Below are positions 12,168-62,980 of a DNA stretch of 64,000 nt, one piece after another; positions within the stretch are counted from its first letter, which is position 1; the number at the start of each line of letters is the position of its first letter. The stretch is from Escherichia phage Ecwhy_1: sequence record MH791411.1. The stretch is one strand, 5' to 3'. The translations under genes were made by a program, and so were the position numbers. The notes under the pieces were generated by a model. The model had not been told where the DNA came from. It saw only the letters and a program-made list of their open reading frames with translations, and searched no databases.

Positions 12168-12794
12168 TTATTGGTAATATTTCGACAGTACTGAATAGAT
12201 TTTTAAACGTAGTTCATCCCAGTTGTTAACATAGTCATACCCATAACCATTTTTATACATATGATTGTGGGACGCTCGCATCATAACTGATGGGATACCC
12301 AATTCCATTGATGTTTCAATATTATTGATATAATCATCAATCATCAGTTTTACGTCATATCGTTCTTTTAATTCTACTAGTGCTTCATGCTTAGATTCAT
12401 TCATTTCAACAATGATGATTTCATCAAAACATGTCTCACCAAATACATGCATAAGATTAGTATTGCGAAGTACCTCGCTATAACCTTTCTTACCACACTT
12501 AGTCAGTACTATGAATTTTTCCTTGTAAAAACGATCACGCAGTTCATGCATAATACTTACAGTGTTAGTTTCTACAGGTTTTAGTAATCCAAACATATAC
12601 GAACGTTGATTGAATTCAGTAATGATCTCTTGAACTTTTTCTCGTGAAACACCAAACCATTCAGATAAATCGTATGCGAGTGGGTATGGTGTTGTTGGGT
12701 TGATATCATATTGGAGTTTTGCGTATTCTCCTAATGAACCAATGTGATCTAGTAGTACTTCATCACAGTCGAATACAATACAACGGTCTTTCAT
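12168..12794 (-). CDS. HAD-superfamily phosphatase, possible 5'(3')-deoxyribonucleotidase
   Basis: motif I FDCDEVLLD (DxD) near the N-terminus and LMIDDYINN (DD) later. Confidence 0.45.
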   Translation of the reverse strand: MKDRCIVFDCDEVLLDHIGSLGEYAKLQYDINPTTPYPLAYDLSEWFGVSREKVQEIITEFNQRSYMFGLLKPVETNTVSIMHELRDRFYKEKFIVLTKCGKKGYSEVLRNTNLMHVFGETCFDEIIIVEMNESKHEALVELKERYDVKLMIDDYINNIETSMELGIPSVMMRASHNHMYKNGYGYDYVNNWDELRLKIYSVLSKYYQ

Positions 12795-13747
12795 TACATG
12801 TTCCCCGAACAGATTAGGTCAATCTCACACAGTAATGCACTGAGATTCATTTCACGGTCAGACACAGTAGCTTGTTTAACAACAGCGTCACGAATCTTAA
12901 CCTTAATTTTCATTAGAGTAATTTCATCAGTACTGAACATTTCTGCATTACGATACAGATAAGAGAAGAATGCATCCATCTCATCATCAGGAATGTTTTG
13001 CACGATCTGCTCACGCATTTGACGAATGTTACCAGCTTTTAGTGCATCAATAATGGCAGTACGATACCCAGCAGAGTTCTCAATACTGTCTTCTAGTTTT
13101 ACAAGTTTACCATCGACTACTGAACTTTGCAATACGTTTAGCGTTTTGCGGAAATCAGGATATGAAGCATTGATGTATTTTTGTACTTGTTCAATACTTT
13201 CATCAGTACTTAGATCTACTCCTTCTGCCAATAGTACGTTGTAGATGCGTGACATGAATTGTTCCATATCATGCTTCTCAATGGTGATGACCTGAACACG
13301 AGAGATAATAGGTTTCTGAATCTTATGTGGTTCATTACTGGTAAGAATGAAACGAGCATTTTCATGGTAATCTTCCATGACACGTTTCAAGCTACCCTGT
13401 GCTTTGTGGTTCATTTGTTCCATTTCTTCCAGAACAAATACACGATAACGACCAAAACATGATAGTTTTGCTGCTGCATCAATTTTGTCACGAACAGCAT
13501 CGATACCTTCATCTGACATATTCAGTGTTGTTACATCACTAGGGTCAAGGTGTCCGTTAGCTTCCAGACCATTCAGTAGTACTTTGATTGCTGAAGTTTT
13601 TCCTGTCCCTGCTGGTCCAAAAAATCCAATATGTGGGATATCACCAGTACGAATCCATTCTTCCATCTTCTGACGTAGGGCTTCGTTCTTAGATACATAA
13701 TCTTCCATAGTTTGTGGGCGGTATTTTTCAGTCCATAATGTAGTCAT
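12794..13747 (-). CDS. 44: clamp loader large subunit (RFC-like AAA+), gp44-like
   Basis: EKYRP RFC box, Walker A GPAGTGKTS, Walker B region VFVLEE, SRV/SRC-like sensor; length 317 aa similar to T4 gp44. Confidence 0.8.
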   Translation of the reverse strand: MTTLWTEKYRPQTMEDYVSKNEALRQKMEEWIRTGDIPHIGFFGPAGTGKTSAIKVLLNGLEANGHLDPSDVTTLNMSDEGIDAVRDKIDAAAKLSCFGRYRVFVLEEMEQMNHKAQGSLKRVMEDYHENARFILTSNEPHKIQKPIISRVQVITIEKHDMEQFMSRIYNVLLAEGVDLSTDESIEQVQKYINASYPDFRKTLNVLQSSVVDGKLVKLEDSIENSAGYRTAIIDALKAGNIRQMREQIVQNIPDDEMDAFFSYLYRNAEMFSTDEITLMKIKVKIRDAVVKQATVSDREMNLSALLCEIDLICSGNM

Positions 13748-13773
13748 GTTTTATTTCCTTGTATATTAGGTGT

Positions 13774-14043
13774 TTATGAAATCCAATCTGCATAATCATA
13801 CAACAATGCAGTGAATAAGTCTTCTGTCATTTCAAGTTGATTAAACAAAAAATTAAATGAGTTTGCTTTGTTCTTCACACCCATTGCTTCGGCCTGGGCT
13901 GATACGATAAGTAAGTACTTAAACATATCATGAGAAACTTCATATACGTACTTCGTGTTAGTTCTATCTTCAAACATAAATCGTCCATTTTTAGAAACTA
14001 ACGTAACGTCAGAAAAACTATATTTTCCATCATCAGTTATCAT
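13774..14043 (-). CDS. hypothetical protein (89 aa)
   Basis: ORF track. Confidence 0.4.
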   Translation of the reverse strand: MITDDGKYSFSDVTLVSKNGRFMFEDRTNTKYVYEVSHDMFKYLLIVSAQAEAMGVKNKANSFNFLFNQLEMTEDLFTALLYDYADWIS

Positions 14044-14099
14044 GTATTTTCATCCAAATAAAAAGCCCAGATAATATATCCGAGCTTTAGATTTATGTT

Positions 14100-14426
14100 T
14101 TAACGACCAAATGTTTGAGCAGAGATGCGTGGATCAGTGTCAGATACCAAACTTACTGCTGCTGGATAATCAACGAGATTCATTTTAATACCATCAATCT
14201 CAATAGTTCTCGACCAACGACCGTGGTCAATTAGAATCCATTGTCCTTCTTTGATATCGGTAATGTCTTCACCAACAGAATATACTTTAGCCCAACGACA
14301 ACGAATACCACGTATCTTACCATCATCACTTGTCAGTACAATACCACCTGCGGTTTTACGCTCACCATGTTCTAGTTCAGTTACAATAACTTTACCTTTA
14401 CAAGCTGTCATTACTTTATTGGTCAT
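14100..14426 (-). CDS. Cpn10/GroES-like co-chaperonin (gp31-like?)
   Basis: KTAGGIVL...VYSVGEDI...EGQWILID resembles the GroES SAGGIVL...VLAVG...VGDIVIF pattern. Confidence 0.4.
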   Translation of the reverse strand: MTNKVMTACKGKVIVTELEHGERKTAGGIVLTSDDGKIRGIRCRWAKVYSVGEDITDIKEGQWILIDHGRWSRTIEIDGIKMNLVDYPAAVSLVSDTDPRISAQTFGR

Positions 14427-14429
14427 GAA

Positions 14430-14774
14430 TTACTCCTGATCTTTAGTTTTTGCTCGGCGTGGAGCTTTCTTCTCTTCAGATACTTCAACTTCTGGTTCTT
14501 GTGGTTGAACTTCAAAGCTTTCATCATCCCATACTTCTTCAGTACTATATTCAGCACTGTGAAGTTGGTGTTCAGGAATGAAATCAGGAATTTGCATTTC
14601 ACGTTCTTTTTCTTGGATTAGTTCTTCACGGGTTTTAATGACCGTACCACCTGAACCAATCTTATCACCACGAGCATTTAGGTTTGCATTACCTAGTGCG
14701 ACTTTGTGCTGGTTTTGATACTTTAGCATATCCATATCAATGGTGGTTCCACGATAAGTTGTGTGTTTTGACAT
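14430..14774 (-). CDS. hypothetical protein (114 aa), acidic C-terminal region
   Basis: ORF track. Confidence 0.4.
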   Translation of the reverse strand: MSKHTTYRGTTIDMDMLKYQNQHKVALGNANLNARGDKIGSGGTVIKTREELIQEKEREMQIPDFIPEHQLHSAEYSTEEVWDDESFEVQPQEPEVEVSEEKKAPRRAKTKDQE

Positions 14775-14837: not shown

Positions 14838-15356
14838 CTACCATTTCAAAAATTCATTTACATCTAGTTTATACTTCAAAGAATCAACCATATGCAAATC
14901 AATCAGGAACAAACAATACGAAGCCACTGAACTACCACGCCCAAGACCCCAAAAAATATTGTGCTCTTCCATATAATCAACTAACCAGATCATACATCTT
15001 AAAAGCTTAGTCATGTTGTAATGTTCAAACAAATCAATCTCATACATTACACGTTCACGGGCTTCATCCGATGTACATTTCTGTAAAAAGTACTCACGCA
15101 AGTTGATGTTATCGTACACTGGATCATAACGCCATAGTTCATGGTTTTTATCATGTTCTATTGTATAATCCAGCATACGCTGTTCTAAACCAAATTTTTT
15201 ACAATTATCGTTAAATTTCAATCGTTCCGGTTCATCAATCTCCTGTAGCTGTAAGTACTGAATATCTGCACCACAGTTGATTGCATACACGACTGCATTA
15301 AGGTTACATTTTACATCACCATTGGGACTTATAAATCTGTTTCCTTGTACTTTCAT
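14838..15356 (-). CDS. family-C DNA polymerase (Pol III alpha/DnaE-type) palm, N-terminal fragment ending before the catalytic DxD
   Basis: YEIDLFEHYNMTKLLRCMIWLVDYMEEHNIFWGLGRGSSVASYCLFLIDLHMVDSLKYKLDVNEFLKW aligns by eye to DnaE ...ELDVIIQMGFPGYFLIV...[36 protein letters not shown]. Confidence 0.55.
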   Translation of the reverse strand: MKVQGNRFISPNGDVKCNLNAVVYAINCGADIQYLQLQEIDEPERLKFNDNCKKFGLEQRMLDYTIEHDKNHELWRYDPVYDNINLREYFLQKCTSDEARERVMYEIDLFEHYNMTKLLRCMIWLVDYMEEHNIFWGLGRGSSVASYCLFLIDLHMVDSLKYKLDVNEFLKW

Positions 15357-15627
15357 TTTTCTTCTTCTGATCCTCTTCGTTATCCGTTAAGTAAGAGTTC
15401 ATGTCAAATATACATGGGTCTTGCTCATCATAGGAGGTTTTTTCTTTTTGTCCCTGACGAATCTCTAATTCAGCATAGCACTGATTCAGAACGGTTTGCA
15501 TGTTACCAACAATCATATCACTCATACCTGCTGCACGAGCAGACGTAATACGCATCGATTGTTCGTTAATTTTCAATTGTAACTCTTTCTCGGTCATGGT
15601 TGATGGATCAAAAAATGGATTGAACAT
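15316..15627 (-). CDS. hypothetical protein (103 aa)
   Basis: ORF track; overlaps the downstream gene by 41 nt, so one of the two starts may be mis-set. Confidence 0.35.
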   Translation of the reverse strand: MFNPFFDPSTMTEKELQLKINEQSMRITSARAAGMSDMIVGNMQTVLNQCYAELEIRQGQKEKTSYDEQDPCIFDMNSYLTDNEEDQKKKNESTRKQIYKSQW

Positions 15628-24615: not shown

Positions 24616-25678
<1,063 letters not shown>

Positions 25679-42498: not shown

Positions 42499-44019
42499 TT
42501 ATTTCCTTTGATTTAACCATTGCTTCATTGCATTTACACGATCAGTACCAATGTGAGGCTGTTGAGGCTGGGATTCAGTTTGTGTAGAAGTGATTGGATC
42601 ACTATCTGTATTTAGTGTTACGCTTTCAACACTTGATGTAGTGCTTGGTTTAGGAGCACCAGAAAGCGTATGACGCAGTGTTTGCATTGTACTTGGTGGC
42701 ATTGCCATGTTACCACCGCCTACCTTAGAGATACCACTGTGACGGAATCCTGACCCATCAGTTTCTAGTTGTTGGATTGTTGTTGCATGGTCTAAAACAC
42801 GAAGTGAATCAATATCGTAAGACATACGCAAACGTGAACCAACTGCACTACTGTTACGTGTTTTCTGGAAGTCAAACCAAAGTTCGCCAGTTTCTTTACG
42901 TGCTTCAATGTAGATAACGTTATCCGCAGTATAGATTTTAGAAATACCACCAGCAATCTGACTTTGACTTTTCTTATCTTCATCCATACCACTACGGTTA
43001 AACTGTGACGCAGTGAATACGGTCAAATCCATTTTGGTTGCTAGTGCACGCAATTCTTCAGATACAAATTTATCTTTTGTAAATGTATTAGATTTATCAT
43101 TAGGACCAAGACGATTTGATGTTAATAGGTCAAGGTAGTCCACACAAACATAATCTAATTTGACTTCCATTTTAATTTGCAATTCACGAAGATAACTTTC
43201 AATATCATCAGTGGTTGTTACGGATTCTGGTAAACGTTTAATACGCAATATACCACTATCCTTACCTTCCATTTGAACTCGTAGACCAATCTTTTCAGCT
43301 TCGTTCTTAACGTTACTTAGCTTAGATTCAGTCATCATACCATAGATACGAACGGCTACCAACTCTTCTGCTAGTTCTAGTGAAATGTATGCACCATTCA
43401 TACCAGCCTTAGCAAAGTTAACTGCTAAGTTCTGTAGTACTACTGATTTACCACCACCAGACGCTGCTGCAAAGATTTCAAGTTCACGGCGACCAAAACC
43501 ACCGAATAGTTTATAGTCAAGGGTTTCCCATCCACTCTTGAATGAACCTTGCATAGTGCTCAATGAACGAATGGTATCTTCTGGATTTTCAAAGATATCA
43601 AGACCCAACTCATTCTGTACAGATACTAACATAGCTTCACGAATGAGTTCTTCGATGCCACCATATTTTTTCTGATGTACTAATTCCATACCTTTCTCTA
43701 CTGCTAGAGCTAGAGCTTTGTGACGGCAAAACTCACTACAGGTATCCAGTACTGCCTGTTTATGAAGTTCTTGTACTTCATACTGATCATACTGATAACC
43801 ACCTTTCACTTCGATATCTTTCAGTGTAGGGGATGAACTATATTTTGCTGCATAATCATGAACGTACTGAATACTTTCATGAAATGTTTTATCAAAATAT
43901 TCTGGCTTTAGAATATTTTTACAACGTACAAATAAATCTGGATTACTGAAAACTTGGGATAGTAAGTATTGTTGTGCATTAATCCCATACTGTTTGACGT
44001 CCACTGTGCTTTGAATCAT
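42499..44019 (-). CDS. 41: DnaB-family replicative helicase, gp41-like
   Basis: Walker A AAASGGGKS, ISLELAEE, Walker B VCVDYLDLL, arginine finger region TASQFNRSG. Confidence 0.85.
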   Translation of the reverse strand: MIQSTVDVKQYGINAQQYLLSQVFSNPDLFVRCKNILKPEYFDKTFHESIQYVHDYAAKYSSSPTLKDIEVKGGYQYDQYEVQELHKQAVLDTCSEFCRHKALALAVEKGMELVHQKKYGGIEELIREAMLVSVQNELGLDIFENPEDTIRSLSTMQGSFKSGWETLDYKLFGGFGRRELEIFAAASGGGKSVVLQNLAVNFAKAGMNGAYISLELAEELVAVRIYGMMTESKLSNVKNEAEKIGLRVQMEGKDSGILRIKRLPESVTTTDDIESYLRELQIKMEVKLDYVCVDYLDLLTSNRLGPNDKSNTFTKDKFVSEELRALATKMDLTVFTASQFNRSGMDEDKKSQSQIAGGISKIYTADNVIYIEARKETGELWFDFQKTRNSSAVGSRLRMSYDIDSLRVLDHATTIQQLETDGSGFRHSGISKVGGGNMAMPPSTMQTLRHTLSGAPKPSTTSSVESVTLNTDSDPITSTQTESQPQQPHIGTDRVNAMKQWLNQRK

Positions 44020-44045
44020 TTATGTTCCCTCATTTATATCCTGTG

Positions 44046-45101
44046 TTACATCCACTTATCCGTTTGTGCTTTAATATAGAAAGGCTCGTCAACTATACTA
44101 TCATGTATCAGTTGTAAACAAAATAATCTTCCAAATCTAGCACATGCTTCGTCAAAATCTTTAATGTGACGTATAGTACTTCCAACACGTACTGCCCCAA
44201 AATCTGGGAAAGAAACACTAAATCCATATTCTAGTGCTTGTTCGATTGTTTGTAATCCATCCTTATCACGGTCTGGTACGATAACAATCTTTTTACCTTT
44301 TTCTTGTGCAGCTTTAAGTACATCTATTTGTACTGCTGACAATTTAAAGTTATTTGCAGAAACACCACCCATTAGTGCTGCATCCATTGGACCTTCACAA
44401 ACTAATATAGTTTTAATTCGTTCATCTTGTAACAGATCATAATTATATAGAATATTAGTACTGACCTGATTAATAAAACGATAGGTACTTCCTGGGTCTT
44501 TAAGTTTGTGTCTAGCAGTATATCCGATAATTTTACCGTTCATAACGTATGGTATGATAAATCGGTCATACATTTTATGTTCTTTAGCTGGACTCCAATA
44601 CAATTCTAAATCTAATAGATATGGATTTCGCTCATTCACATGATTCAGAACACTAATAAATTCTTGTGGTATTTGCTCTTCTGGTAACGATGCCCATTCC
44701 CAGAATGTTTTTGAGTTCGGTGGTAATTCACGAACAGTTACACGTTGATATAGTTTAGATGCAGTAGTTTCTTGTTCTGCAAAGTCTCCACTATCAACCA
44801 TTTCTTTAATGTAAAATTTAGCTAGTTCTATTTCCTTATCCTGTGCACCAAAAGAAATGAGCAAAGACTCCATATCTTTGCTCATATATTTTCCAGGTTG
44901 CCACCCAGTTTTTAGACTACAGTTAAAACAGTTATAAGAAACAGAACCATCTGCGTTAAACATATGATTGCCGCGATTTTTAGTATCGGGGCGTGAATGA
45001 CCACGGAACACACAAGCAGGACAATTGTGATGTGTCCACATACCAATTCCTGGTACTGGGTCATTCATGATTTGTGCCATGATGTTTTGTACAGCGTTCA
45101 T
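44046..45101 (-). CDS. 61: DNA primase (zinc ribbon + Toprim), gp61-like
   Basis: CPACVFRGHSR...CFNC zinc ribbon, Toprim motifs CEGPMDA and VPDRDKDG; directly upstream of the helicase as in T4. Confidence 0.85.
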   Translation of the reverse strand: MNAVQNIMAQIMNDPVPGIGMWTHHNCPACVFRGHSRPDTKNRGNHMFNADGSVSYNCFNCSLKTGWQPGKYMSKDMESLLISFGAQDKEIELAKFYIKEMVDSGDFAEQETTASKLYQRVTVRELPPNSKTFWEWASLPEEQIPQEFISVLNHVNERNPYLLDLELYWSPAKEHKMYDRFIIPYVMNGKIIGYTARHKLKDPGSTYRFINQVSTNILYNYDLLQDERIKTILVCEGPMDAALMGGVSANNFKLSAVQIDVLKAAQEKGKKIVIVPDRDKDGLQTIEQALEYGFSVSFPDFGAVRVGSTIRHIKDFDEACARFGRLFCLQLIHDSIVDEPFYIKAQTDKWM

Positions 45102-45156
45102 AATTTAATCCTTGTTATTTCTCACAAATGATTATAGCACAAACACTTGTTTTGTC

Positions 45157-46135
45157 TCACCTGCGAATCAAAATTTTAGGAACTGACAGTAGTGGGTCAT
45201 AGACTTTTCTTACTGCCGCATAGTCATAAGGAACTGGAACGATCTTAGGATGAATACAAACAACCAATCGCAACCACATGTAATTACCTTTAAAATTAAA
45301 TGCTTGAATCCCATCTAACGCTTTAGGGAATCCATTTTCATCAATATCATTTTCGATATATTCTTTACCATCCAATTTAACAATAAACCATTTATAGTTT
45401 TCGTTATCAGTTGGTACGTTATTACACAAACATCCTTGTAATTGAATTCTACCAATGAATTTATCAAAGTACATTGCAATAGTACTAAGACCATCAACTA
45501 ATCCGTACTGCATTTGTGCAGGAAGGGGAGATGTTGCCATTATATCAAATTCACCAATAACGCCACGAGCGATTGGTTCATGATACAAGCGTTTGATGGT
45601 AGTCCATGCTGGGTTTTTATTAACAGATACTTCAATACTTGGCACAAACACAGGAGCAGCTTGGTCGGAAATGATCAATTCAGCAGAGGCTTCATAATCA
45701 AGACCAGTGTATAAGTACTGTGTAGGTTCAATCAAGGAACCATCCATTGTTACTTTAGTAATACTCCATCTATATTTTGAACCAGGACTAGTATCCTGAA
45801 TTACACCAGCAGGAACAATACATCCATAATATACTTTTTTACTATTACCTAATGTTTGTCTTGCTTGTCCACTTTCTGATAGCCATGATGGTTTTTGTTT
45901 ATCCAAAACTACATCGAATAATTTAGTATTGTTTCTAGCATCAAAAATCATGAATGTTAGATATTCGTTATCTTTTAGTAATGTATATTTTCCATCAGCG
46001 TTATGCACTGTGAATGATAAATTGTTATTTGCACCTCTGTATATTGTAAGTTTCTCATTGCTATATGGCATATTAAAATTGCCCAATGATACTTCTTGGT
46101 TATAAGGGTACATAAACACGCCGTGATGAGCCATA
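45157..46135 (-). CDS. hypothetical protein (326 aa)
   Basis: ORF track 45157..46368; start moved to MAHHGVFMYP, which has AGGAA upstream; the longer N-terminal extension is low-complexity. Confidence 0.45.
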
Positions 46136-46191
46136 GTTTTTCCTTCCATAAATAATAGGTATAAATTTATACTAATATTTATGGAACTCAT

Positions 46192-46545
46192 ATGAATCAA
46201 TATAATACTATTCCACCATTTATCACGGTAGTTCAGTGTGATGGTAAAACTTTCATTGGTATTATCAAGATAAAAAGTAAACAGTATACTACTCTTTACT
46301 GCTTTGATGATATGGATGAACCAATGCAAGATGAATTGTTGGGTATAGCACATGATTGGTGGTGGCAAAGCAACAGGTCAATTCCAGTCTGTCTATTCTT
46401 CCAAGAAGAGATGGAGAAATTTGAACCTTACACACAGAGATTCGATACCCCTGCGGTGAATTTCGTTTGTGGTCCAGTAGTTTCTTTAAGTGATTTGCCA
46501 CAAAAACGCATCAAGCGTCGTAATGTGGCTCTTAAGAAGAAGTAA
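46192..46545 (+). CDS. hypothetical protein on plus strand (117 aa)
   Basis: plus-strand ORF filling a gap in minus-strand coding; TATAAAT motif at 46158-46164 upstream; ends overlap convergently with 46532..47170. Confidence 0.4.
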   Translation: MNQYNTIPPFITVVQCDGKTFIGIIKIKSKQYTTLYCFDDMDEPMQDELLGIAHDWWWQSNRSIPVCLFFQEEMEKFEPYTQRFDTPAVNFVCGPVVSLSDLPQKRIKRRNVALKKK

Positions 46546-47170
46546 GATGTTCAACTAAAGCGTTAAGTTGAACTACAATCATTAAGCTGTATGCATAAGC
46601 ATGTGGCTTTTTGAAATATCGTAACTTATTTCCTGCTTGGTCTGTGCCAATAGTACTGTAATCCCATATAGTGGATTCAACTTCACTCCATGTATTCATA
46701 CTTTGGCACTGCCTTTTTCCAGGACGAATCATTGCAATAAACATTGCAAGTTCATCAATGGATTTAGGTTTCCACACATTTAATAATGTAACATGTTTTT
46801 TAATCTGTGAAAGATGTTCAACTATTTCTGGTTCTAACAGAAGATCCCAATTAGGTTCCTGATTCATTAGTTCTTTTAAATGTGCTCTATCACGAACATA
46901 CTGGTAAGCCGATTGTGACAGGATATCTACCTTTTGATATCCCAAGCGTTCGGCTTCTTTATATTGTATGCTGGCTAAACCAGTGATAGGGTCAATTGGT
47001 ATATTATCAAAATGAACACCACTGTTATGGGGGATTAAACCATCCTCCGTAATTTTTTCTGTACTTCGCACACAAGGAAGCTGTGCAATCACTGACTTAC
47101 TATCTTTAAAGTCAATGTCGATATCTGTTCGTGCTTTACGGTACGAATTAGAATTTGTCGAATCCTGCAT
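46532..47170 (-). CDS. family-C DNA polymerase (Pol III alpha/DnaE-type) palm, C-terminal fragment starting at the catalytic DIDIDF
   Basis: [11 protein letters not shown] ~ DnaE [29 protein letters not shown] ~ [35 protein letters not shown] ~ DMIALVALFRPGPLQ; thumb region apparently absent. Confidence 0.55.
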   Translation of the reverse strand: [212 protein letters not shown]

Positions 47171-47477
47171 TTTTGATTTGCTCCTGCAATTTGTTTACAG
47201 TGTTAGATAATTTGGTTACCTGATTTTCTAACATTGTACACTTTTGTTTGGTCTTTGACAACTCTTGACTTAGACCAAAGAATCTTTCCTCATGTCTTTC
47301 AACCATACTGATAATTTTTTCTACACGAACAGGATCGTGCACCTGAAAGGTTTTACCATCAAGTGTAATTTCAGTTATAGAACCCTGTCTAAGCAATGAT
47401 AAAGATTTAGATTTATCTGCTTTAGGCACAGGTACATACCCTTCTGGTATTTTATTATATATACTTTTTCCATTCAT
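47148..47477 (-). CDS. hypothetical protein (109 aa)
   Basis: ORF track. Confidence 0.45.
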   Translation of the reverse strand: MNGKSIYNKIPEGYVPVPKADKSKSLSLLRQGSITEITLDGKTFQVHDPVRVEKIISMVERHEERFFGLSQELSKTKQKCTMLENQVTKLSNTVNKLQEQIKNAGFDKF

Positions 47478-48184
47478 AATCCAGCCTCACGTAGCATACT
47501 TTTTATTTCATCACATTCCTTTTTGTACTTTATAGTTTTAACCTCAAAGTAACTAGGATCAATGTATTTAAGTATATACTCGATTTCAGAGTTAGAGAGA
47601 TTCTTGAAAAACTTATTAGTACTTTCTTTTGGTGCTAACCAGATAATCCAAGGTGAAATCTTACCACTCTCAATCCATGCAATTGCACGGGCAGAACTCA
47701 CATTGGAAAAAAACTTATTCCACTCCAAGTTCAGATTCTGACCCCATTCCACCATCGCAACAACACTACGGGAAACCGCAGCATTGGGAGATTCAGAACG
47801 AATACAATCTAATATCCATTCATCCTTTGCTTTATAAGTACTCCATTCCATAATAGGACGGTTTCTTACAATTAGACTTTTCACAAAACCATCAATATCT
47901 AAAATATCACGGTTGTTCAAATAATAAATTGCAAAATCATAAAAATCACTAAAGTACTTTGATTTTATAAAAGCCATTAATGGTTCAACTCCCTTCTTGA
48001 AAGGGAAATGGTTTAACTCCATGAATTGCATATAAATGCGAAAAGCCTCCCTCATGGGGCGGCTATCACGATCTTCGTAGCGGTCACGTTTAACACACTT
48101 ATGTGTGTTAACTGTGTCTTCGCGTTTAAATTCTTTATCACAGAACTTACATTTGTATACGGGACTACTTGATTTCTTTGCCAT
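47474..48184 (-). CDS. hypothetical protein with N-terminal C2H2-like zinc finger
   Basis: YKCKFCDKEFKREDTVNTHKC. Confidence 0.5.
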   Translation of the reverse strand: MAKKSSSPVYKCKFCDKEFKREDTVNTHKCVKRDRYEDRDSRPMREAFRIYMQFMELNHFPFKKGVEPLMAFIKSKYFSDFYDFAIYYLNNRDILDIDGFVKSLIVRNRPIMEWSTYKAKDEWILDCIRSESPNAAVSRSVVAMVEWGQNLNLEWNKFFSNVSSARAIAWIESGKISPWIIWLAPKESTNKFFKNLSNSEIEYILKYIDPSYFEVKTIKYKKECDEIKSMLREAGL

Positions 48185-51504: not shown

Positions 51505-52323
51505 TTAATTAGTTCGAGTATTATATTCGTACTCAAATGTATATACTAAATCTTTATCACAGTTTGGGTTACTTGCATCAAGAATATCACTGTTAGTAAT
51601 CATCCATTCAATATAGTTCAATGGAACAGTTTCCATTGGTTCGCCTTTGTGTTTACCAAATGGCATGAATTTATAACGCATTGGTGTATTACAGAATGTT
51701 ACGATTTGTTCACCAATGTCACCATTAGGGTCAATATGTCCACGTTCAATCGCAACTTCAATCAATTTGATTAGAACTTGATAACACATAAACACGTCAT
51801 CTTTTGCTGCGTGAGCATTGACTGCACGATGTACATCACGATAGCAACCAAATTTATACCACAAATAACTTAGAGTTAAGTTTTTAAATTCAGTGTCTTC
51901 TGCAAACATCTTCTTAGCTAAACGAAGGGTACAAATCCATTTATCTTCATCGAGCAAGTACTGCGAAACTGAGTTACGATATTTATATTCGTTATCTACC
52001 ATCATTCGGCGGTCAAATTGAACGTTGTGTCCAATAAAATAATTACGACACCCCATTAGTGCGTCAATGTTTTCTAAGTCATCTTTATAACCAATACAGT
52101 TTGCTACATCTTCAGTACTGATAAAATGCACAGCACTTGCTTCTGGTGGTATATCTTTTAGTGGTTTATAACGCAAAGTGTAGTTATCAATAGTATCAAT
52201 ATTCTCATGTGCATCGTGAGGATATGAAATACTAAATTCAATAATATCATCTTCACTTTCGACACCAGTTGTTTCGGTGTCTAGTACTGATACGTTTGAT
52301 AGGAACTCATCTAATTTTGTCAT
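51505..52323 (-). CDS. DnaQ-like (DEDDh) 3'-5' exonuclease, ExoX-like with C-terminal KHKG-containing extension
   Basis: LDTETTG, GHNVQFD, HRAVNAHAAKDD, C-terminal FMPFGKHKGEPMETVPLNYIEWM. Confidence 0.65.
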   Translation of the reverse strand: MTKLDEFLSNVSVLDTETTGVESEDDIIEFSISYPHDAHENIDTIDNYTLRYKPLKDIPPEASAVHFISTEDVANCIGYKDDLENIDALMGCRNYFIGHNVQFDRRMMVDNEYKYRNSVSQYLLDEDKWICTLRLAKKMFAEDTEFKNLTLSYLWYKFGCYRDVHRAVNAHAAKDDVFMCYQVLIKLIEVAIERGHIDPNGDIGEQIVTFCNTPMRYKFMPFGKHKGEPMETVPLNYIEWMITNSDILDASNPNCDKDLVYTFEYEYNTRTN

Positions 52324-55242: not shown

Positions 55243-60477
<5,235 letters not shown>

Positions 60478-61966: not shown

Positions 61967-62685
61967 TATGAACGGAACCCTTCAGGTAAACCAGGTAGAT
62001 TCTCTAACCCTTCGTTCGCATTCACTAGCTTTACGTCATAATCATCACTGAAATCATCCGTAGCTAGTTTACGCCCCATGTCTCTAACGAAGTTGTCAAT
62101 AATTTCTTCTTCGTCATTGCCTGGATGACCTTCCGCTTTTAACTTTTTCCAAAAGTATTCATTATAATCAAAAACAAATTCAACTTCATTTGTTTCTGGA
62201 TTAAGTACTACATCCAAATCAATCCAAGGTTCTTTACGTAAAGTAAAGATTTCCTTTGAATACTCTTGTTGTGTAATCTCTTCATAACGATATGCAAACT
62301 CGATAGCTTTAAGACGTTTGTCATCACCATCAGGCATTAGTTCGATTACTTCCATATCATACTCTTTTTGAGTAATTGCACCAGTACTTAATTTAGCATC
62401 AAGTAATTTTACATTATACTCATCACGGGTAATCTTGGAATACTTCAATTGTACATCTGCCTGTGCTATTAGATAATCAAGAGTTTCTAATACATTGTAT
62501 TTCTTTTTGATATCCAACTGTGCTACATCAACTTCATATGGTGTTAGATATGTAAGTTCTGCAACTAACATATCAGCTTCATAATCATCGTTATAGTAGT
62601 ATGCTTTCGCAATCTCTTTCGCTTTACCAGAAAGTCCCCAATGAGCGGGGACCATCCAGAAAGGAATAAACCTTTTTTTAGCCAT
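61960..62685 (-). CDS. hypothetical protein (about 240 aa)
   Basis: ORF track 61960..62712; start taken at MAKKRFIPFW to limit overlap with the upstream gene. Confidence 0.45.
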   Translation of the reverse strand: MAKKRFIPFWMVPAHWGLSGKAKEIAKAYYYNDDYEADMLVAELTYLTPYEVDVAQLDIKKKYNVLETLDYLIAQADVQLKYSKITRDEYNVKLLDAKLSTGAITQKEYDMEVIELMPDGDDKRLKAIEFAYRYEEITQQEYSKEIFTLRKEPWIDLDVVLNPETNEVEFVFDYNEYFWKKLKAEGHPGNDEEEIIDNFVRDMGRKLATDDFSDDYDVKLVNANEGLENLPGLPEGFRSYK

Positions 62686-62980
62686 TTGATTTCTTACCAA
62701 AAATTTCTTCAATTTTCATCACATAATATGTGTCTTCACCACCACCAAGATCTTCAGTGATAGGAGTGTTTAGTGATGAACGACCGAATACAACCATATC
62801 ACCAACACAAATATTATGTTCTGCAATTTGCCCATTAGGTAGTACTTTACCTTCACCAACTGAAATCACCATACCAACACATGGTGGTTCCACGTTTCCT
62901 AGGATAATACCACCAGTACTTTTATTCTGTGCTTCAATTTGACGAACCAGTACATAATCGTTAATCATTTTAATTTTCAT
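62678..62980 (-). CDS. Cpn10/GroES-like co-chaperonin
   Basis: from MKIKMINDYVLVRQIEAQNKSTGGIILG...VISVGEGKVLPNGQ...VGDMVVF...YYVMKIEEI, closely following the GroES pattern PLHDRVIVKR...KSAGGIVL...VLAVGNG...VGDIVIF. Confidence 0.55.
   Translation of the reverse strand: MKIKMINDYVLVRQIEAQNKSTGGIILGNVEPPCVGMVISVGEGKVLPNGQIAEHNICVGDMVVFGRSSLNTPITEDLGGGEDTYYVMKIEEIFGKKSNG

Follow-up and report, generated by a model that had tools for sequence, protein, structure and literature searches.

This locus raises the question of why a phage with a T4-type replisome should encode half of the palm of a bacterial DNA polymerase III alpha subunit (Pol III alpha, DnaE; a family-C polymerase) as a stand-alone gene, and what this gene could do together with a second one, located 31 kb away on the same strand, that appears to hold the catalytic aspartates. 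The two are referred to here as the N-half and the C-half, and the whole 64-kb stretch of DNA that was analysed as the window. The window comes from a RaK2/121Q-like jumbo coliphage: it shares 99-99.7% identity with phages of this type, among them EC.P1, WPEC5 and fEgEco12, and 82% with 121Q and PBECO4. An earlier interpretation made from the letters alone (the sequence-only reading) had recognised both halves and proposed a two-subunit enzyme. The observation was confirmed as real and conserved, and the interpretation is supported in each element that could be checked: the two genes probably encode, in two parts, a single minimal polymerase core of family C (Pol III alpha-type), proposed to act as a non-covalent accessory DNA polymerase without proofreading. 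The coordinates of the genes, their motifs and other features of the window are collected in Table 1.

Table 1. Positions of the two polymerase genes, their putative active-site motifs and further genes in the window
Feature	Position	Strand	Remarks
N-half gene	14838..15356	(-)	ATG start, 172 aa; ORF list
GS-type triphosphate-binding loop, codons G137-L-G-R-G-S-S143	14928..14948	(-)	Coordinates verified; E. coli GPGRGSG, GRGS at 361-364
C-half gene	46532..47170	(-)	212 aa; predicted palm beta-sheet with catalytic carboxylates and pared-down fingers; starts ...RTDIDIDF
Codons D16-I-D18-I-D20	47111..47125	(-)	Coordinates verified; = E. coli D401-F-D403-V-D405, two of the three catalytic aspartates
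Codons K80-V-D82	46925..46933	(-)	= E. coli K553-F-D555, third catalytic aspartate; aligned to VKFDFLGL
Codons R149-P150-G-K152	46715..46726	(-)	= E. coli fingers motif FRPGP (RPGP from residue 639)
Codons K187-K188-P-H190	46601..46612	(-)	= E. coli N757-K758-S759-H760, O-helix
N-half downstream module	12794..14774	(-)	114-aa ORF, GroES-like gene, small ORF, clamp-loader AAA+ subunit
114-aa ORF	14430-14774	(-)	Adjoins N-half; conserved
GroES-like gene	14100-14426	(-)	Pfam Cpn10, E 1e-4; syntenic with N-half in PA5oct and Atu_ph07
Clamp-loader AAA+ subunit	12794-13747	(-)	Pfam DNA_pol3_delta2/AAA/Gp44_lid
103-aa ORF	15316-15627	(-)	No Pfam match
C-half downstream module	42499..46368	(-)	Virion structural protein, primase, DnaB-like helicase
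Primase	44046-45101	(-)	From annotation
DnaB-like helicase	42499-44019	(-)	Pfam DnaB_C
117-aa ORF	46192-46545	(+)	No Pfam match
Zinc-finger protein	47474..48184	(-)	236 aa; upstream of C-half; annotated as zinc-finger domain protein in fEgEco12
DnaQ/RNase T-type 3'-5' exonuclease	51505-52323	(-)	Stand-alone, 272 aa; PF00929, E 1e-14
Translation initiation factor IF3	25175-25678	(-)	fEgEco12 annotation (g413)
Large terminase (gp17-like)	56580-58882	(-)	Three ORFs, 228, 114 and 445 aa
Second GroES-like co-chaperonin gene	62678-62980	(-)	fEgEco12 annotation only

Two halves of a putative family-C active site

The N-half could be assigned at the level of sequence profiles. Its residues 90-171 matched positions 15-95 of the 260 in the Pfam family PF07733 (DNA_pol3_alpha, Bacterial DNA polymerase III alpha NTPase domain) with 36.4 bits (E=5.8e-9) against a curated cutoff of 23.9 bits, a match that is, judging from this score, far beyond chance. 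When a profile built from 27 sequences of the N-half family was run against the PDB, only Pol III alpha chains were matched (E ~0.003-0.006), over residues 320-393 of the E. coli, 384-455 of the Taq and 342-413 of the M. tuberculosis enzyme, and hhalign placed the N-half onto residues 322-395 of E. coli DnaE (E=7.7e-6). Similarly, all of the top 14 Foldseek PDB matches of its AF2 model (pLDDT 88.5) were family-C polymerases, and PHROG 11127 covers the protein over its full length (E 3.9e-85). By profile alignment and predicted fold, the N-half is thus the N-terminal, helical, nucleotide-binding part of a family-C palm, equivalent to approximately residues 320-395 of E. coli DnaE, as the sequence-only reading had claimed; its first ~90 residues are family-specific and less conserved. 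The protein contains the GS-type nucleotide-binding loop of such palms (GxGRGS), in which G137, G139, R140, G141 and S142 were 100% invariant among 151 sequences (clusters at <=50% identity). In E. coli DnaE, an FLN motif at residues 392-394 is followed by the catalytic PDFDVDF at 400-406, and the N-half, with its C-terminus EFLKW, ends 5-6 residues short of the position of the catalytic DxD. This is in agreement with the earlier estimate that the gene stops about 6 residues ahead of PDxDxDF.

The C-half, which had been named as the matching C-terminal part, proved harder to place by sequence. No significant match was obtained in Pfam or the PDB at the sequence level, a hmmsearch of the PDB with the C-half profile returned nothing, and its match to the fingers family PF17657 was weak (residues 129-162, E 0.04; 27 of 66 family members matched, with a best E of 0.003). 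The assignment therefore rests on the predicted structure, for which the top 12 Foldseek matches were all Pol III alpha, and on the register of the motifs, which hhalign aligned colinearly with E. coli DnaE (DIDID with 401-405, KxD with 553-555, RPG with 639-641 and KxH with 758-760), albeit with weak E-values of 0.015-0.078. PHROG 11778 covers the C-half over its full length.

[quoted passage not shown] The D16/D18/D20 motif, located on a predicted strand (E17-21), was invariant in 66 of 66 C-half family members. In the same set, D82 was invariant and K80 at least 90% conserved, both residing on the predicted strand E80-85, and H48 was also invariant. The fingers are represented by both the RPGP and the O-helix motif, though the domain is strongly truncated. 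R149, P150, K152 and H190 were invariant among the 66 members, and K187 and K188 were at least 90% conserved. In the alignment of the C-half FKKPHAYAYS with the E. coli FNKSHSAAYA (756-765), H190 coincides with H760, the presumptive steric gate against ribonucleotides (PMC8485763). At the level of aligned motifs and predicted folds, every active-site element of a family-C polymerase was shown to be present across the two halves.

The phage pair shares a Pol-beta-like palm with the bacterial enzymes DnaE (Pol III alpha) and PolC, and its GRGS loop, Asp triad and RPG and KxH motifs follow one another as they do there; the predicted phage folds matched only these enzymes. The differences lie in the two chains (172 and 212 aa), the missing PHP domain and the reduced thumb. 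The halves amount to 384 aa in total, compared to ~1160 aa for E. coli Pol III alpha. No PHP domain was detected by Pfam in either protein, and only ~90 residues precede the palm match of the N-half, so the absence of an upstream PHP domain noted earlier holds. The thumb (E. coli residues 433-510) is reduced, with ~27 residues between DIDID and the H48 strand compared to ~105 in E. coli, and in the fingers ~80 residues are deleted between RPG and KxH. The alignment of the pair ends at approximately E. coli residue 773-775, with nothing past this point that could correspond to a clamp-binding motif, an OB fold or a tau-binding domain. The C-termini of both halves are short and variable, and neither a thumb nor a clamp-binding element was found in the pair, which does not form a single polypeptide of ~1100 aa. 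A phmmer search with the single E. coli DnaE sequence against all ORFs of the window revealed no further DnaE fragments, although this search was insensitive and also failed to score the two halves as significant.

Replication context and proposed function

Both halves lie in replication modules (Table 1). The order of the genes downstream of the N-half is shared with phages PA5oct and Atu_ph07 (homology by phmmer), and that of the module downstream of the C-half with PA5oct, Atu_ph07 and the Alishewanella phage Slickus01. The zinc-finger protein encoded upstream of the C-half, a candidate accessory factor, is conserved in its location: homologues were found there in PA5oct (E 1e-33) and Atu_ph07 (E 6.5e-32). 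In Slickus01 the blocks are rearranged, with the N-half following a UvsW-like helicase and the clamp loader located just upstream of the C-half block (L008 6135-9045, 17514-20495), which suggests that the two modules were closer in smaller genomes.

Two small ORFs overlap the polymerase genes. Convergent with the C-half gene and sharing 14 nt with its 3' end, the 117-aa ORF breaks an otherwise long series of minus-strand genes. Its homologues in PA5oct and Atu_ph07 (E ~1e-18) take up the matching convergent position, where Slickus01 has an ORF of comparable size. The 103-aa ORF shares 41 nt with the beginning of the N-half gene, an arrangement that may reflect translational coupling; it corresponds to a hypothetical protein in 121Q (gene 55) and is unannotated in fEgEco12.

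The sequence-only reading had regarded a family-C palm as unexpected next to a T4-type replisome, T4-like phages being known for a family-B polymerase (gp43). Such a polymerase was indeed found as an intact, single gene of 1001 aa (PF03104 and PF00136) in the closest relative, fEgEco12 (99.5% identical over the tested region), where it adjoins the sliding clamp and lies at a position ~550 bp past the end of the window. Among the other parts of the T4-type replisome, the clamp loader, the SF2 helicase (UvsW-type) and DnaB were confirmed by Pfam, while the sliding clamp and a gp32-type SSB were identified by annotation only. The stand-alone DnaQ-like exonuclease is encoded ~4 kb upstream of the C-half, beside the UvsW-like helicase. 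It could conceivably proofread for a polymerase that has no exonuclease of its own; the PA5oct and Atu_ph07 loci examined did not contain it at the corresponding place.

We propose that the two proteins build one active site between them. The N-half would provide the helical part of a Pol-beta-like nucleotidyltransferase palm, with the GxGRGSS loop gripping the triphosphate of the incoming nucleotide as in Pol III alpha. The C-half would contribute the metal-binding carboxylates D16, D18 and D82 on the beta-sheet, together with reduced fingers bearing RPG and the O-helix K-x-H, where H190 would take the place of the H760 steric gate. The cut appears to fall in the loop between the last helix of the N-side and the DxD strand. 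No intein fragments are present, and the sequence reveals no mechanism that could link the halves covalently, so that they must associate non-covalently. The resulting heterodimer would rebuild one Pol-beta-like palm with mini-fingers and a single active site. As the histidine aligned to the steric gate and the fingers motifs are invariant, a DNA-templated, dNTP-selective polymerase is favoured over a synthase that uses ribonucleotides or produces signalling nucleotides.

The lack of PHP and proofreading domains, a thumb, a clamp-binding motif, an OB fold and a tau-binding domain predicts a distributive, accessory enzyme instead of the main replicase, and the heterodimer would probably also be error-prone when acting alone. 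Its role is thus probably an accessory one beside the phage family-B replicase, and its synteny with the genes of the primase-helicase and the clamp loader points to activity at the fork, or to a part in recombination-dependent replication or repair. Possible tasks would be short-patch synthesis in repair or recombination-dependent replication, or the extension of primers made by the neighbouring primase-helicase.

A more specific form of the last option, which we put forward tentatively and regard as rather unlikely, is that the pair constitutes a dedicated primer-extension or hand-off polymerase physically coupled to the phage primase-helicase, and not a spare repair polymerase. In that case the parts that are missing (thumb, proofreading and processivity) would be supplied by other conserved neighbours, for which the zinc-finger protein, the products of the 114-aa ORF and of the small ORF convergent with the 3' end of the C-half, and the DnaQ-like exonuclease are candidates. 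Such an enzyme would be an analogue of eukaryotic Pol alpha or of B. subtilis DnaE, which extends RNA primers before hand-off. The functional analogy with B. subtilis, where DnaE operates alongside PolC, is speculative: in both cases a second, non-proofreading family-C polymerase would be present beside the main replicase, and the synteny of the phage C-half with the primase-helicase adds to the likeness, but the main replicase of the phage is of family B, and its family-C enzyme is far smaller and split. If this were true, the T4-type replisome would be a two-polymerase (family B and family C) machine, and the pair the smallest natural family-C core for studying the origin of Pol III.

The sequence-only reading had instead suggested, for example, a primer or signalling-nucleotide synthase or a translesion enzyme, and an active nucleotidyltransferase heterodimer that is not a templated DNA polymerase, but performs template-independent tailing or synthesises primers, oligonucleotides or signalling nucleotides, would be compatible with several features of the pair. 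The palm belongs to the Pol-beta-like nucleotidyltransferase superfamily, which includes such enzymes (PMC7824862), the thumb and most of the DNA-binding parts of Pol III alpha are absent, and a complete family-B replicase is already present in the genome of the closest relative. However, the structural neighbours were exclusively family-C DNA polymerases and not cGAS-like or CCA-adding-type nucleotidyltransferases, and the closest relatives did not fall among cGAS/CD-NTase enzymes, CCA-adding enzymes or poly(A) polymerases. In addition, the fingers motifs that in Pol III alpha contact the incoming dNTP and the template are invariant, and the genes belong to replication modules and not to islands of defence or counter-defence. 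Synthesis of signalling nucleotides or primers is therefore not favoured, chiefly because the residue aligned to the E. coli H760 steric gate is invariant, and we consider a non-polymerase function of this kind quite improbable.

Conversely, the split Pol III could be a principal replicative polymerase, for example for one strand, working with the phage clamp and clamp loader while the family-B enzyme serves the other strand. Consistent with this, the two genes are a core pair, universally conserved in this phage lineage, synteny links the N-half to the clamp loader and the C-half to the primase-helicase, and synthesis of one strand has been raised by Iyer et al. (PMC7824862). On the other hand, the pair has no proofreading domain, thumb or recognisable clamp-binding tail, and its total length is far below that of a replicative Pol III alpha (384 versus ~1160 aa). 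Moreover, in T4-type replisomes the family-B enzyme serves both strands. Taken together, these points make a principal replicase a decidedly improbable reading, and leave the accessory polymerase as the preferred one.

Distribution, split point and selection

Both halves were found to be kept together, with the same split point, well beyond the relatives of the window phage. A tblastn search detected the N-half in 92 and the C-half in 95 phage records, and the numbers per genus agreed between N- and C-half (Escherichia 33/33, Pseudomonas 11/11, Salmonella 8/8, Erwinia 8/8, etc.), and the halves also occur together in hundreds of metagenomic clusters. They are separate genes in every case, 11-224 kb apart: 11 kb in Slickus01, 14 kb in Xoo-sp13, 30 kb in a Vibrio phage, 44 kb in PA5oct, 182 kb in Atu_ph07 and 224 kb in Phosso. 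Slickus01, which carries both halves and a family-B polymerase, has a genome of only 141 kb and is thus not a jumbo phage.

The lengths of the two proteins are similarly constrained. All 110 N-half clusters measured 95-187 aa, and the best 120 of the 789 C-half clusters 157-220 aa. A scan of 1.84 billion representatives with the N-half HMM returned 979 relatives at E<=1e-10 and 476 at E<=1e-30, the best 150 of the latter being 157-196 aa long, and no fused form of the two halves was present among the protein-database matches listed. In 133 of 151 aligned sequences, the N-half ended 0-1 residue past the FLK motif (10 residues at most), while 0-15 residues preceded DIDID in the C-half. Compared with phage 121Q, dN was 0.034 for both halves, and dN/dS was 0.010 for the N-half, for which dS was saturated, and 0.045 for the C-half. 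Both halves are under strong purifying selection.

These data bear on whether the proteins are functional at all. The loss of large parts of Pol III alpha and the fragmentation of the gene could be taken to mean that the halves are what is left of a captured dnaE that is decaying or inactive, or that they have a structural or regulatory role without catalysis. Against this stand the catalytic and nucleotide-binding residues, which are invariant over hundreds of divergent clusters, dN/dS values of 0.01-0.045, and the same split point and matching lengths in phages of hosts ranging from Enterobacteria to Agrobacterium, Pseudomonas, Vibrio and Alishewanella, and such a remnant is accordingly very improbable. 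That the split itself is unreal, through mis-assembly or because the halves are rejoined by split-intein trans-splicing as in cyanobacteria, where dnaE consists of two distant genes, has next to no probability given the same two-locus arrangement in >90 independently assembled phage genomes, the transcription of the C-half upstream of the N-half, and termini too tight for an N-intein of ~100 aa or a C-intein of ~35 aa. On the coding strand the order of the two halves is permuted, so that no simple deletion, join or mis-join would restore a single gene. Distribution, conservation and dN/dS together exclude chance, pseudogene decay and mis-assembly, and the mis-assembly, pseudogene and intein readings were rejected on the basis of the >90 genomes, the low dN/dS and the tight termini.

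The cyanobacterial case differs from the phage one in further respects. In both, a family-C polymerase is derived from two distant genes (dnaE-n and dnaE-c in cyanobacteria), but the cyanobacterial halves bear intein fragments and are spliced to full-length DnaE, whereas the phage halves are without inteins and are cut elsewhere, just before the DxD strand of the palm. A split intein of the cyanobacterial type comprises an N-intein of at least ~100 aa that starts with Cys and a C-intein of ~35 aa that ends in HN followed by the nucleophile. The few residues beyond FLK in the N-half and ahead of DIDID in the C-half leave no room for either fragment, in line with the lack of an N-intein-like block noted from the sequence.

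The split Pol III in the literature

The arrangement has been known from sequence since 2021, and the present work is a rediscovery. Iyer, Anantharaman, Krishnan, Burroughs and Aravind (Viruses 13:63, PMC7824862) described a phage-specific minimal Pol III module in group 2.2 jumbo phages, whose two parts, an N-terminal protein that binds NTP and a C-terminal one that binds Mg2+ and DNA, are encoded by distant genes. In their account, the module occurs alongside a family-B polymerase, a PCNA-like clamp and a clamp loader of the RFC-like type, may work together with the family-B enzyme when one strand is synthesised or in repair, and is viewed as a model of the ancestral enzyme (PMC7824862). The pair analysed here, with its two separate halves 31 kb apart and its accompanying T4-type replisome genes, is the same system, with nothing essential different. 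Our interpretation is hence supported, but not new.

What is added here is a residue-level map to E. coli DnaE that includes the residue aligned to H760, the finding that 150 or more divergent clusters share one split point, the conserved synteny with the clamp-loader and primase-helicase modules, and the presence of the pair in the 141-kb, non-jumbo phage Slickus01. PHROGs 11127 and 11778 are labelled DNA polymerase, and many GenBank records carry the name DNA polymerase III alpha. A literature search for a later functional study of the split pair (activity, expression or essentiality) yielded none, the papers returned being on split inteins, routine genome reports and the 2021 study, and the main text of the PA5oct omics paper makes no mention of either gene. 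A connection between the second polymerase and the probable modified guanine in PA5oct DNA was considered and dropped, as nothing connects the two.

Should the proposed mechanism hold, the pair would be the smallest natural family-C polymerase, with a catalytic domain that is cut mid-way and rebuilt from two subunits, and a family-C enzyme would operate beside an archaeo-eukaryotic-type (family B) replicase in one replisome. This bears on the evolution of Pol III alpha and on why large phages keep a second polymerase, and a minimal split Pol III could serve as a compact scaffold for engineering.

Several other genes of these phages deserve mention. In related phages the family-B polymerase is itself often in pieces: the polymerase B of MIJ3 and PA5oct is interrupted by an intein or HNH (PMC6892783), and in Slickus01 the family-B polymerase is present as two adjacent ORFs of 567 and 311 aa (L010 2558-5196). 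Within the window, a gene annotated as IF3 in fEgEco12 lies among replication and structural genes, and a second GroES-like co-chaperonin gene is present (Table 1). The large terminase occupies three consecutive, slightly overlapping ORFs, which correspond to three separate CDSs at the same place in fEgEco12 (g367-g369), and which could reflect programmed frameshifting, an intervening element or a gene that is truly split.
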